Shown: positions 21,001 through 27,000 of the stretch, in pieces
Position numbering within the stretch: position 1 is the first letter of the stretch
How the letters are laid out: each line of letters starts with the position of its first letter
NCBI RefSeq assembly: GCF_003790525.1
Contig: NZ_CP033635.1
Reading direction: 5' to 3' (one strand)
Length of the DNA: 64,000 nt
From: Escherichia coli
Lineage (GTDB): Bacteria > Pseudomonadota > Gammaproteobacteria > Enterobacterales > Enterobacteriaceae
Program-made: the position numbers

Positions 21001-24000
21001 TCAGGTCAATATAGCCCAGTTTTTCGACAGGTTTTCCGACGTTAGTGTCCGAGAAAGCAATTTTATACACCCGTTTGAACCTGGCTACTTGACTGAAGCA
21101 GTTGTTGGTCGGCGCGCCGGCGACGCAGGCTTTATCCGCCGTGCCTTCGCCGTTATCACGCTCGATCACCAGTCCGTGGGTATCATCTATCATATTGAAG
21201 TCGCCGATGGCGTTCTGGTTGTCTTCCAGCACGTACTGCCAGCTGCGACCAGTCCAGGCCTGCTGTTTGGCATCGAACTCCAGCACACGCAGGTAGCGTT
21301 TTCCGCCAACGTTCTCGAACTGCTCACCGTCCCACAATGCCCCTTCCAGCAGCGGATACAGCTTACTGCCGTCCGGCGAGATGGCCATGCCTTCAAAGCC
21401 TTTGGAACGCGCCACCTGGAAGTTCAGCTTACCGTCCGGAGCGCTAGGTAGAGTCAGCGTCGGGTTGTCCGGCGATTTAACCACCTTACCGTCCACTTCT
21501 GTGTCGAACACCGCCAGCACCTTGCCGTTCAGGTCGGTCTTGATCAGGTAAGGACCGAACTCATCACCGATCCATAAGGCATCGTCGGAAAACTGGAAGC
21601 TTTCCGGATCAAAATCGCTGCCGGTCAGATAGCGTAGTTCGGTGCTCTCGTTGATGATGTGGAACGGCACCTTTTTATCCGGATCATGCAGGAACAGCGT
21701 CTTCAGCGGTACTACCGAGCCGTCTTTGAAATCTATCTTGTATTGGTTGAGGTACAGCATGGCGTCCGGGGAGTTGGCTTTGCTGCCGAAGCCATTGTCA
21801 GTCAGCACCCAATAGGTACCGTCGGGCATGTGTTTGATACCTGAGTGGCCCTGCAACGGCTGACCATTGATCGGCAGGCTGAGTCCTGTCAGGCGTTCTG
21901 CGGATTTGCCCGCTACGCTGCCCAGCTCGGTGACGCGTTTGCCGCTGGTGTATTTGCCGCTCTGTTGCAAATCGCCCGGCGCATCCTTCGGTGTTGAAAC
22001 AGCGGATTTTGCCGGCAGAATTGCATGCCCGGCCAGCGTTGCCTGCACCGGCTGCGCTTTGGCCCACAGGTTGGCGCTCAGAGCCATGCAGCCAACCAGT
22101 ATAGCCAGCCGGATTTTGGAGGTGTGCATGTCATACTCTCCTTTCGTTGTTATCGCCCAGAAGTAAAACTAACGTCATTGTAGGGAGCAGAAATGACAGA
22201 AATATTATGATTACGGTAGGGATAGCCGTTGCCGGCTTCCCCGCCATGTCAACGCCGGTATTTATGGTTTCTGTTTGCTTTTCTGTAAAAATAAAGGGGA
22301 GAGACGACGGTACTATAAACAACCATGATGAATCTCATCTATTCGGCCCAGATGAAAGACGCGAGTGAGGCTCTTGTTCGTTAAGCGGATACGTATATCC
22401 TGTACAATAATCAGATATACCTCACGGGGTCTAACACTTTATCATCAACGAGTTGCAGATCAGATAGTCATACGGTTGCTGCGTGCTTTAGCTGGCTGAA
22501 TACAGCCTGAAATCATCACCGTAATGACATGATGCCCAGCACAGCCTTACCTTTCTGGCGGCGATGGCCACAACAGCGCGTCAGTATTCTCTGCGTTCAA
22601 CCAGTGAACAGACCCAACGACTGAATGAGTCAGTCCTTTTCTCAGCACCAATCAGTACTGAACGAGCCCCCTGAACCAGAAGCATTCGCAGATACGAATC
22701 ACCGGCTTTTGTTATCCTGCCCAGCTTCGACATTCAGCCGCTGCTGTATTGTGATAGCGTCAGCCCAGCCAGGCTGCCAGTTGCCGTCCCTTTTTAAAAT
22801 CATGTGCATTACCGATACAGGCAACCAGCGCACAGGCTGTTGTGGGACCAACTCCTTTTAGCTCCATCAGCTGTTTAATACGGATATCATCCCTTGCAGC
22901 CTCATGAAGACGGTGGTCATGAGACGATATGAGTTCATTTTACTCTGACAGTTCGCACAACAAACGGATGAAGGGTCATTCCACTGCCCCTGGACAGTAT
23001 TCCCTGCTGGATTTTACGCACGTGCCTTATCCCCACAGGCAGCAGCAGACCAAATTCACTCAACAGCCCCCGGATTTCATTACGCAACGCCGTTCGCTCG
23101 CGGATGATTCTGGCCCGGACCCGGTATTCTTCCTGTAACGTCTGCTGGGATTCCGATATGAAAACAACAAATCGCATGCCGGGCCTGCTGACGGCCTCAC
23201 AGATGGCAGCTGCATTATTAGCGTCGTTTTTGTTACCTTTGAGATAAGATTTGACAAGTTTCTACGGAATAATGCGCACGGTAGGCCCCATACGGAATGA
23301 GTTCCCGTGCCCAGAATGGGAAGAGCCACAGACTTCGATGCTGATGAGGCAGGGAGAAAGCCCGGAGAAAAACGTCATCATGTGGGGAGGGCTCAGCGTT
23401 TTTCTCCGTACCACTATTCATTGTGATCAACGCCGTGGATTTGAAAAACATTTTTCGGCAAGATCGAAACCAATACGATTAATATTCATGACTGACTTCT
23501 CCACCAGGGAACTGGGTACATCTCAGTCTGGAACGTTGATGCCGTAAGGAGGAAGATGTCAATCACATCGGCCTACACGCGATGTTAGCTCAGATAGGCG
23601 AAACGTATCCGACATTACACTGGTTAAGACTTCGTCGATTTCTCAAAGCGGCGTAGTAACTGATTCCCACGCTCAACGGCGGTATCCAGCGCCTGCTGTG
23701 GCGTCTTCTTACCGGTCCACACGCTCTCAAGCTCTTCATCCACAATCGCTCTGATCTGCGGCATGTTGCCCAGACGTAGTCCTTTGGTGAACGGTAACGA
23801 CGGTTTGTTCAGCATCTGACGTGTCGCGATATCCGCCCCTGGGTTTTTCTCATAAAAGCCCTGCTCACGGGTCAGGTCATACGCCGCTTTGGTGATTGGC
23901 AGATAACCGGTTTTCTGATGCCACTCGGCAGCATTTTCTGGCTTCGCGAGGAAGTCGAGGAACTTCGCCACGCCGGTATACGTTTCTTTATCTTTGCCCT

Positions 24001-27000
24001 GCATCACCCACAGGCTGGCTCCGCCGATAATGGCGTTTTGTGGTGCATCTTTCGCGTCAGCGTCGTAAGGCATCATGCCTACGCCGTAGTTGAATTTGGC
24101 GTACTCGCGAATGCTGGCAAGAGAACCAGAAGAGGCAGTCGTCATTGCGCAATCACCGTTATAGAACTTCTCGGTGGATTCATCCTTACGCCCGACGTAG
24201 CTGAAATCGCCTTTCTTGTTCATCTCTTCGAGCATGGCGATGTGTTTCACCTGCTCCGGCTTGTTGAACTCCAGCACCGCATCTGTGCCGTCAAAGCCGT
24301 TGTTTTTGCTGGCAAACGGCAGACCGTTCCAGGCGCTAAAGTTTTCCAGTTGGATCCAGCCCTGCCAGCCGCTGGAGTAGCCGCACTTCATACCGGAGGC
24401 TTTCAGTTTCGCGGCATAGTCCGCCAGATCCTGCCAGGTTTTCGGCGGCTGTTCCGGGTCTAATCCTGCTTTCTTGAAAGCATCTTTGTTGTAATAGAGA
24501 ACAGGAGTCGAGCTGTTGAACGGCTGGGAGAGTAAGTGTCCCGTTTTGCTGTCGGAGTAGTAGCCTGAAACCGTCGGCACAAACTGCGACTCATCAAAGT
24601 TAATCCCCGCCTCTTTAAACACGTCATACACCGGTTTAATGGCTTTCGACGCCATCATGGTGGCGGTGCCAACTTCATAAACCTGCAAAATAGCCGGAGC
24701 GTTACCGGTACGAAATGCTGCGATCCCCGCACTTAAACTCTCTTCGTAGTTGCCTTTATAAGTCGGTATAATTTTGTAATCCGGGTTTTCGGCGTTAAAA
24801 CGTTGGACCAGAGAATTCACCTCTTTACCCAGTTCCCCTTCCATAGAGTGCCAGAACGGAATGGTCGTCACTGCCTGTGCATTCCCCATTAACGTCAGTC
24901 CGAGCACCAGTGCTGAAGCTGTATAATGTAACGGTTTCATCGTTTATCTCTCTTGCTTGTTGTACCTGATGAGCGAATTCACACGTTTCATGCTCGTGGG
25001 ATTAAATATCATGCCCGAATTGCAGAAAAATAACTTTTTTATTACATGTGTTAGACAGTAAAGTGTTAGAAAGATGACAGAGCAGTGACGGCACAGGTGA
25101 GACGTGGTGGATTGAATTTGATCCTGCTGTTGACAGTGAAATCCGCAAGACATGTCCGGCAGTGATCGTGAGCAATGACGCAGCAAACAGGAACCTCGCT
25201 CGAGTAGTCGTCGTTCCTCTGACCAGTAACACAGAGCGAGTGTATCCAAGTGAGGCTGTTGTGACCGTAGGTGTCAGAGCAGCAAAGCGATTGTAGAGCA
25301 GATTATGGCGGCGGATAAGTCCTGTCTCAAAACACATATTGGCTCGTTGTCCAAAGCAGATATGTTGTCTGTTGAGGACGCAATCAAGATCCATCTTGGT
25401 TTACTGCGGTAACGCCATGTGAATCTGTCGGCTACCGCCATTAGTGACGGAATTTTCTGTGGGGCAGCGTACCAATGGCATTCGGTTAAGTTCTTGCTGG
25501 AGCATCAAAAGAGTTCCAGCGCGTTCTGGGCCGTACATATTTTCGTGGGTAACACCTCCCTGGCCTTACTCGCTGAGTCATACAACTGCGATCGATTCAG
25601 ATGCCATTTTGCAATCAGCCTCTCAGAAAGAGCGCAACAGAATGATTTTAAATGTTTTCCTGTTACCCGAATCAGTAAAGACAAGTACCTCACTACGAGA
25701 AACAAGCAGTTTTTGAAATTAAAATTTTGTTTATTTCTACTACTACCGATGAAAACGTTATTATCTTAATAATTAATGTCATTTCAGGATATCCATGTAA
25801 GGTTAAGTAATAATATATGAGCCTGTATTTTTATTTTACATCTTTCTCACTCTGTGAATGAAAATATTCAATAGAAAATTTGATTTGAATAATTTATATA
25901 ACTCTTCTATATTACATCAATGCCGATAGAAATCGTAAAAAGCTTCGTTTTCATAAAAATTTCTTTCAATAATATTTGTAGCTGGACCAGCCCCTTGAAA
26001 CGCCAGATAGTGGATGTATCTTAAAATAAGAGACAGGCTTGGATATATGTCTGACACTGGTTCTAATTTTGAGATGACTGGAACTTTGCCGGGGCTGTAG
26101 CTTCGTAAACGTAAAACTCCTCAGGAAAAAATTGGCATTATTCAGCAGACAATGGAGCCTGGCATGGCGGTGTCACATGTGGCGCGTTTGCGTTGTATTC
26201 AGCCCTGCCTGTTGTTTAAGTGGAAAAACAATCTCTGGAAGGAAGTCTCACTGCTGTTGCTTCAGGAGAGGGTGTCGTTCCTGCCTCAGAACTGCCTGCC
26301 GCTATAAAACAAATAAAAGAGTTACAGCTCTTGCTGGGTAAAAAACCATGGAAGTTTAGATCCTCAAAGAAGTGGTGGAGTATGCGCAATCGCGAAAATG
26401 GATAGCGCATGTGCCCTTGTTACCTTCGGACAAGGAATAGCCCCGGTAAGCCGTGTTCTGGGCGATACTCAGGCGGCAGTCCCTAAATGAAGGACTACCG
26501 TTAGTGAATGCAAAGCGCGTTTACCGTAAGCGTAAACTGACCGCCGTATGTAGCCATCAGACGAGAATTGGTAACTTAGACGCCCATCTGATATAGACGG
26601 ACATCTAAGTATGGAATTACAGGACTGGCGAAAAGAACCTCGTAAAAACTATTTGAACCGCCCCGGGTTTCCTGGAGAGTGTTTTATCTGTGAACTCAGG
26701 CTGCCAGATCATCGTTTCCGATGGAAGCATAATAAGCTTTTTCTGCTTCTGCCGGTGGGATATGGCCCAGCCTTTCCAGCAATCGTCGATTGTTATACCA
26801 GTCCACCCACGTGAGTGTGGCCAGCTCCACTTCTGTCCGGTTTTTCCAGCTCTTACGGTGTATTACCTCCGCTTTGTAAAGGCCATTGATGCTCTCCGCC
26901 ATCGCGTTGTCATACGAGTCACCAGTACTTCCTGTTGATGCCAGTAATCCGGCTTCCTTAAGCCGCTGTGTGTAGGCCAGCGATACATACTGAGAACCTT

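Follow-up and report, generated by a model that had tools for sequence, protein, structure and literature searches.

Orphan ugpB gene and its neighbours

A 64,000-nt stretch of Escherichia coli DNA (contig NZ_CP033635.1 of assembly GCF_003790525.1), called the window below, carries a complete ugpB gene that is not followed by ugpA. The gene is found on the minus strand between the remnant of an insertion sequence (IS) of the IS110 family and the remnant of a pemK/mazF-type toxin gene. The following features lie at the locus.

22234-23568, minus strand: decayed chimeric IS110-family element (left end at 23568, transposase pseudogene at 23489-22491, right end at about 22234)
23569-23623, minus strand: captured ugpB 3' flank, the start of the ugpB-ugpA spacer, which ends inside a repetitive extragenic palindromic (REP) sequence (...GTGTAGGCCG|), from alignment to E. 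coli K-12
23624-24940, minus strand: orphan ugpB coding sequence, 438 aa, ATG start, intact, with a signal peptide (open reading frame list, Pfam, K-12 alignment and PDB match)
24941-25101, minus strand: captured ugp promoter and 5' untranslated region, with the phased Pho-box array and the ribosome-binding site kept and the native livF-ugpB spacer missing its upstream part (K-12 alignment and Pho-box scan)
25099-25412, plus strand: pemK/mazF-type toxin pseudogene, without codons 1-4, with one frameshift and without an antitoxin gene (three-frame translation and tblastn)

The gene at 23624-24940 is a second, unlinked ugpB carried in a mosaic genomic-island module and does not belong to the native operon. 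Native E. coli UgpB (b3453; PDB 4AQ4 and 6X84) is the binding protein of the UgpB-AEC2 glycerol-3-phosphate (G3P) importer of the Pho regulon and has the same length of 438 aa. A preliminary description of this DNA, made from the sequence, had called the orphan gene a full-length UgpB with its signal peptide, and this is borne out by the 438-aa open reading frame (ORF) with its ATG start and by Pfam matches to SBP_bac_8 (E=8e-43) and SBP_bac_1 (E=8e-38). No stop codon or frameshift interrupts the 1,317 nt. The coding sequence differs from K-12 at 13 of 438 residues (97.0% aa identity) and at 65 of 1,317 nt (95.1%). The term "near-identical" used in the same description is thus right for the coding sequence with these 65 nt and 13 aa differences and slightly generous for the copy as a whole, since the promoter is only about 80% identical. 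PDB 4AQ4 is matched at E=1e-281, and the two solved E. coli UgpB structures 4AQ4 and 6X84 are both matched at E values of about 1e-280. On the basis of Pfam, K-12 identity and the 4AQ4 match, the protein is a member of the SBP_bac_1/SBP_bac_8 two-lobe fold and falls in cluster D (CUT1).

The features that the orphan shares with native ugpB are the signal peptide, the GWQGW Trp clamp (identical to K-12), the ribosome-binding site and the phased Pho-box array. The AQA signal-peptidase cleavage site (AXA type) is kept, as read directly from the sequence without a predictor. Two substitutions, A12V and A16T, fall in the hydrophobic core of the signal peptide. The 13 variant positions spare Trp169 and Trp172 of the clamp, the residue aligned to Glu66 and the Arg adjacent to V398A. 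A189S adjoins the Trp clamp and V398A adjoins this ligand Arg. The differences from the native gene lie in its surroundings and in its private changes: no ugpAECQ follows and no livF precedes it, it stands between the IS110 and pemK remnants in island DNA, 11 private amino acid changes are found at conserved positions, and the promoter is about 20% diverged while native promoters are 97 to 99% identical.

BLAST comparison with the K-12 livF-ugpB-ugpA region showed that native-locus homology is limited to 25101-23569. This 1,533-bp segment consists of 161 bp upstream of the ATG, ugpB itself and 55 bp beyond the stop codon. On the downstream side the homology ends at ...CATCGCGTGTAGGCCG; K-12 goes on with GATAAGCGAAGCGCATCCGGCA (REP; GATAAGCG... 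after the breakpoint) and then ugpA, whereas the island goes on with ATGTGATTGACATC.... At the upstream junction the ugp promoter and pemK have the pentamer GTGAG in common, a microhomology that suggests illegitimate recombination at this edge. The native ugpBAECQ order is not found, as the IS110 remnant and a phytase-like gene stand downstream of ugpB. In a tblastn search with the K-12 proteins, UgpA, UgpE, UgpC, UgpQ and LivF had no match in the 64-kb window.

Second ugpB copy in E. coli genomes

The evidence for a second copy comes from counts in 5,426 complete E. coli genomes (the reference set) and from avian pathogenic E. coli (APEC) strain O2-211; the genome of the window itself was read within the 64 kb only. 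A 90 to 95% match, that is the native ugpB, is present in every genome of the set but one. When the 3' end of native ugpB was searched for together with ugpA and ugpE, an uninterrupted match was found in 5,422 of the 5,426 genomes, and the roughly 215 extra partial places are island copies. The 4-kb mosaic of pemK remnant, ugpB, IS110 remnant and phytase-like gene is found at 99% identity or higher in 194 to 217 of these genomes (about 4%). Among some 200 independent complete genomes the mosaic is 99.7 to 99.9% identical. It is also present in four metagenome contigs; all four carry the island-specific coding 33-mer in the IS110 and phytase context and none has ugpA. In APEC O2-211 both loci are found: the island copy at 4,347,338-4,348,654 and an intact native locus, livF-(phd/doc)-ugpB-ugpA-ugpE-ugpC-ugpQ-yhhA-ggt, at 294,816-299,849. 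A protein identical to the island one is indexed for over 5,000 assembly blocks, and the ten contexts shown are all of the IS110 and phytase type, none with ugpA. The assembly contig closest to the window is GCA_045584695.1 (99.8 to 99.9% identical). An assembly artefact was considered and rejected, the mosaic being present in about 200 complete genomes and four metagenome contigs.

The preliminary description had left two readings open, a second, orphaned ugpB or a native ugp operon disrupted by rearrangement. Under the latter, the native operon of this genome was broken by an IS rearrangement, the gene at 23624-24940 would be the sole ugpB, and ugpAEC would have been moved or lost. The IS remnant that follows ugpB and the lack of ugpAEC in the window agree with it. 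Beyond the 1.53 kb, however, the flanks are island DNA with neither livF nor ugpA, and the orphan allele is 5% (coding sequence) and 20% (promoter) off every native allele, native matches falling in the 90 to 95% band. At the population level the broken operon is contradicted by the 5,422 intact native junctions and the island copies that some 215 genomes carry besides. The two loci of APEC O2-211, and the same mosaic at different chromosomal sites across strains, speak against it as well. We regard it as very improbable. The second-copy reading, with its 1,533-bp homology set in island DNA, is the one that stands, and the position directly downstream of ugpB is taken by the IS110 remnant and not by ugpA, of which the 64 kb hold no match. 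The structural and evolutionary identity of the orphan gene as described here is in our view close to certain.

For annotation this means that ugpB occurs twice in about 4% of E. coli genomes, and that the island copy should not be taken for a broken operon, nor should pan-genome or multilocus sequence typing (MLST-type) work pool it with the core gene. RefSeq already annotates the island gene as ugpB in hundreds of genomes. In the literature on ugpB in connection with genomic islands, pheV islands, APEC or extraintestinal pathogenic E. coli (ExPEC) and paralogues, no description of the island copy was found. All parts of the module are of familiar kinds: a captured core-gene fragment, a transporterless binding protein, a REP-targeting IS110 element and a toxin-antitoxin relic.

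IS110-family remnant

The intact plasmid-borne IS110 transposase WP_001398381.1 matches 23489-22491 by tblastn over residues 1-340, in three pieces in frames -3, -1 and -3. RefSeq annotates the transposase gene here as "frameshifted; internal stop". The preliminary description had placed a frameshifted IS110 transposase fragment, and not ugpA, after ugpB; the tblastn pieces in two frames and the RefSeq annotation agree with it. Its extent of 22560-23250 was too small, the element running from 23568 to about 22234. The left end of the element is only 79 nt from the ATG of the transposase pseudogene. Pfam Transposase_20 (PF02371) matches a 50-aa fragment only, and the ORF, broken by frameshifts and stops, is a relic of the DEDD (PF01548)/Transposase_20 family. 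Identity to WP_001398381.1 is 36% aa in the N-terminal half and 80% aa (91% nt) in the C-terminal third, which indicates that the remnant is a chimera of two IS110 lineages.

Klebsiella plasmids carry a related element, also decayed, whose alignment begins at the first base of the remnant and whose left flank is the same (...GATGTGTAGGCCG|ATGTAATGGAC). The flank GTGTAGGCCG|ATGTAATGGAC is thus common to the island remnant and its Klebsiella plasmid relative, so that 23568 is a true IS end and the REP half-site its target. Uninterrupted K-12 holds GTGTAGGCCG followed by the rest of the REP, which likewise assigns the decamer to the target and not to the element. Judged from the left flank (REP half-site GTGTAGGCCG, where K-12 continues GATAAG), ugpB was separated from ugpA by a genuine site-specific insertion of an IS110 element into a REP sequence.

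Insertion into REP sequences is documented for the IS110 family, for example for IS621 (PMC11208160; PMC1525189). The remnant resembles IS621, a bridge-RNA-guided recombinase, in its DEDD/Transposase_20-type pseudogene and in a left end at a REP half-site. It differs in the insertion point, which is GTAGGCCG|GATAAG here and ATCAGGC-CT-AC in IS621, and in being dead and chimeric with the right-hand REP half missing. An Rfam scan of 20000-30000, for which no bridge-RNA-specific model was built, gave no match within the IS110 element and no family that reached its gathering threshold in this range. The locus provides an example of a REP-targeting IS110 element cutting a core operon, with one gene and its promoter carried into a mobile island.

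pemK toxin remnant

The toxin pseudogene is similar to an intact PemK-family toxin of E. coli IncF/IncI plasmids (78% and 71% aa identity in two frames; 78% nt). As the preliminary description had noted, the MazF/PemK-type gene lacks a start codon and carries a frame change: the first four codons are absent and the frame is shifted by the loss of 1 nt near 25270, so that no intact toxin ORF of about 110 aa is present. Pfam PemK_toxin gave 21.8 bits on a 44-aa ORF, under the cut-off of 23.1. The plasmid antitoxin had no tblastn match in the window, and the ugp promoter occupies the place upstream of the toxin. The remnant is thus similar in sequence to plasmid PemK/MazF type II modules and differs from them as a relic without start codon, antitoxin or intact frame. 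A scan for promoters and terminators gave one sigma-70-like site at 25330-25302 (minus strand), within the pemK remnant and directed toward ugpB; it is at chance level (1 found, 1.9 expected) and was not used.

In the native locus of APEC O2-211 the livF-ugpB spacer holds a Phd/YefM-Doc toxin-antitoxin pair (24012-24607 of that locus stretch); K-12 has a REP sequence instead. This comparison makes the spacer next to the Pho boxes, on their upstream side, a variable insertion spot. The Phd/Doc pair gave rise to the idea that pemK was part of the donor's native livF-ugpB spacer. This was not supported, as no pemK homology was found upstream of native ugpB in 80 species loci, a set in which Escherichia is poorly sampled.

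Origin of the island allele

In a neighbour-joining tree the island ugpB was placed within Escherichia with 100% bootstrap support, and its grouping with native E. coli alleles had 85%. In synonymous divergence (dS) from K-12, the island copy (0.21) equals the GTDB representative E. coli (0.21) and is slightly below E. albertii (0.26). By these measures the island copy is an Escherichia, E. coli-like allele. Native ugpB is highly diverged at silent sites within E. coli, yet its promoter is 97 to 99% conserved, and the silent divergence suggests old allelic lineages or recombination at the native locus. Over the captured segment the closest native alleles in the 5,426 genomes are in the 90 to 95% band, with three unexamined records at 95 to 99%.

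The searches made for the donor did not find it. The ten contexts shown by the exact-protein look-up and the four metagenome contigs with the 33-mer are all of island type, and a metagenome scan for the island-type 3' flank running into an uninterrupted REP had no match. Among the matches listed in a genome-contig scan, the only Escherichia species were E. coli and E. albertii.

The module may have formed as follows. In a donor Escherichia, the spacer that separates ugpB from ugpA would have received a REP-targeting IS110 element or a replicon with one. Recombination within the IS would then have fused the ugpB side to an IS110 copy beside the phytase-like gene, which fits the 5'/3' chimeric remnant. 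A second, illegitimate event would have joined the ugp promoter to a truncated pemK, and the module would have spread among E. coli inside integrase-bearing islands.

Selection on the coding sequence and divergence of the promoter

Private changes were counted at positions identical in the four native Escherichia sequences, and codon 397 (CGC to AGA) was taken as two synonymous changes. The counts were as follows.

Island branch: 15 synonymous, 11 nonsynonymous, ω about 0.21
Four native branches pooled: 59 synonymous, 9 nonsynonymous, ω about 0.043

The island ratio of 15:11 is below the neutral expectation of 78% nonsynonymous changes (binomial p=8e-5). The ORF is intact in 22 of the 22 island copies read. 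Polymorphism among island copies was taken from ten island-bearing complete genomes (an unbiased sample) and the window, 11 sequences in all; 12 sites are variable, 8 synonymous and 4 nonsynonymous (p about 0.001 to 0.01), with the ORF intact in all 11. One RefSeq protein is common to seven of the ten genomes and the window translation is identical to it. From these counts, the island coding sequence is under relaxed but real purifying selection. Gene conversion between island and native copies was also considered; the variant alleles gave no signal of it, and a new mutation on either island haplotype gives the same pattern.

The 161 bp upstream of the ATG are 97 to 99% identical among native E. 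coli alleles, 92% in E. albertii and about 85% in Klebsiella, and the island copy is only about 80% identical. The 11-bp-phased Pho-box heptamers of the island promoter match 12 to 14 of 18 consensus positions, as in K-12; 18 invariant positions are changed. The regulation of the island ugpB has probably drifted from the native Pho-controlled pattern.

Possible function of the orphan UgpB

The orphan ugpB is probably still expressed and makes a periplasmic binder of G3P or glycerophosphodiesters, as far as the selection data and the kept residues go. No permease or ATPase is encoded alongside it, so the protein must feed the resident UgpAEC or act without a transporter. It may dock on the resident UgpAEC, or it may act alone as a bile-responsive chaperone. 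Two binding proteins on one ATP-binding cassette (ABC) translocator are known in LivJ/LivK with LivHMGF and in HisJ/ArgT with HisQMP. By analogy, one membrane complex could also receive substrate from an additional binding protein whose gene lies away from the permease genes. These pairs differ from the present case in being old paralogues with distinct specificities encoded near the transporter, whereas the orphan UgpB is a 97%-identical, horizontally carried duplicate. As to the chaperone, UgpB is a documented bile-responsive periplasmic chaperone whose overexpression leads to bile resistance (PMC8144458). We lean slightly toward a retained function of the orphan protein; the explanation as a whole, a second, island-borne ugpB with its function retained, we consider reasonably probable.

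Several results weigh against this explanation. Both genes that flank ugpB are pseudogenes, and the segment could be a decaying passenger. In the promoter, changes private to the island are found in 22 of 143 columns, and at 18 of these E. coli, E. albertii and K. pneumoniae show no variation; this divergence looks like lost constraint, and the island regulatory region would have either lost its native constraint or been retuned. The island ω is 5-fold higher than that of the native branches (Fisher p=0.004), and codons 1-68 hold 7 of the 11 private replacements, including two in the signal peptide. The low dN/dS against native alleles may largely predate the capture, and few polymorphisms were sampled (12 sites in 11 sequences). 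A donor chromosome with the order ugpB-IS110-ugpA was not found; the order of events given above is a reconstruction.

Much of this would be expected if ugpB were a non-functional hitch-hiker, an inert passenger not yet disabled, in the manner of the IS110 and pemK remnants: the two pseudogene neighbours, the promoter with mutations at 18 positions that show no variation from E. coli to Klebsiella, and the 5-fold rise in ω on the island branch. Moreover, extant copies differ by only about 0.1 to 0.4% and hence share a recent ancestor, which makes intactness alone weak evidence. An inert passenger is harder to reconcile with the 15 synonymous to 11 nonsynonymous changes on the island branch (about 78% nonsynonymous under neutrality, p=8e-5), with the 8:4 ratio among copies, and with 1,317 nt free of stops and frameshifts next to a promoter that gained about 15% private change. 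The ribosome-binding site, signal-peptidase site and ligand residues are intact as well. We consider an inert passenger a less likely account, though one to be taken seriously. A neo-functionalised paralogue, in which the 11 replacements and the rewritten promoter are adaptations to a new ligand, partner or regulatory input, would explain why the promoter has changed faster than the private synonymous rate (22 changes observed, 7.4 expected, p=1e-5, and only p=0.035 at an assumed 10% branch length). The replacements lie at residues conserved in Klebsiella, Citrobacter and Pseudocitrobacter, they cluster toward the N terminus with two in the first helix of the mature protein, by which the binding cleft is shaped, and A189S and V398A adjoin the Trp clamp and the ligand Arg. 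An ω of 0.21 is well under 1, however. None of the replacements, the two in the cleft-lining helix included, substitutes a known ligand contact, no new transporter genes are nearby, and the clustering may be due to chance or to relaxed constraint on the signal peptide. Adaptation of this kind appears improbable. Only a little less doubtful is the proposal that the orphan UgpB is selected as a stand-alone, Pho-uncoupled protein, either as a bile-stress chaperone or as an extra dose of G3P/glycerophosphodiester binder. If it were so, island-bearing E. coli associated with the gut or with poultry could have a colonisation advantage.

If the orphan ugpB is expressed, the island-bearing strains offer a natural test of a second, diverged binding protein sharing UgpAEC. 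They would equally test whether UgpB's activity as a chaperone is selectable on its own, and how a Pho-box promoter evolves outside its operon.

Island context and other cargo

Two further genes give the context of the module.

20786-22129, minus strand: secreted "esterase-like activity of phytase" gene (Pfam Phytase-like E=5e-61), which moves together with the 3' half of the IS110 remnant
51517-52710, minus strand: P4-type integrase gene, directly beside core lptG (side region 51517-54047)

The larger mosaic island that contains the module has an RpiR-family regulator, a phosphotransferase system (PTS) EIICB gene, a nanE-like gene and a YadA-like adhesin. The same island has a haem-type TonB receptor, a DUF4198 gene and many IS elements, and in this window a tripartite ATP-independent periplasmic (TRAP) transporter. 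The island of the window abuts the P4-type integrase beside lptG, lptF, pepA and valS. ARAGORN found no tRNA gene in the 64 kb, so the island attachment site is not an intact tRNA within the window. In APEC O2-211 the core genes that flank the island fit a pheV-region site, though no tRNA was seen at that place. The ugpB module adjoins gss in one other genome. These positions, together with the lptG side, place the module at more than one chromosomal site.

The phytase-like gene is also found without ugpB on several E. coli and E. fergusonii plasmids (99.2 to 99.6% match). On plasmid NZ_CP104510.1 (2748-6575 of its stretch), the only plasmid whose flanks were read, the phytase-like gene and the 3' part of IS110 (window 20786-23045) lie between two IS1 copies. 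This looks like an IS1 composite transposon that moved the gene out of the island without ugpB.

The PTS maltose/glucose-type EIICB at 18084-19639 (minus strand) is split between two ORFs that overlap (415 aa and 108 aa); in APEC O2-211 and others it is a single 518-aa gene. The split gene is a probable frameshift pseudogene in the strain of the window. Compared with the APEC O2-211 island, 26527-29282 is extra and holds an IS3-family element (orfA 27583-27909, orfB 26696-27586). The Rfam scan of 20000-30000 found the ALIL IS3 frameshift pseudoknot at 27512-27628, a sub-threshold match to the small RNA AfaR at 26484-26605, and none in the ugpB module. An intact IS110-family transposase gene (362 aa, 27915-29003) lies 6 bp from the orfA start of the IS3 element; this IS110-type element at the end of an IS3 element may reflect end-targeting. 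The TRAP transporter genes DctM, DctQ and DctP (29962-32800) are found together with a DsbD-like protein gene (34000-35508). By comparison with APEC O2-211, in which the island segments on either side are adjacent, 29962-35508 is an extra cargo block. At 42869-45812 a PepT-like peptidase gene (42869-44140, minus strand) is divergent from a DppA-like gene (44175-45812, plus strand). The DppA-like dipeptide-binding protein scored 883 bits, below the equivalog cut-off of 1005, and no adjoining permease genes were recognised. This may be another case, in this island, of a binding-protein gene that has no transporter of its own.

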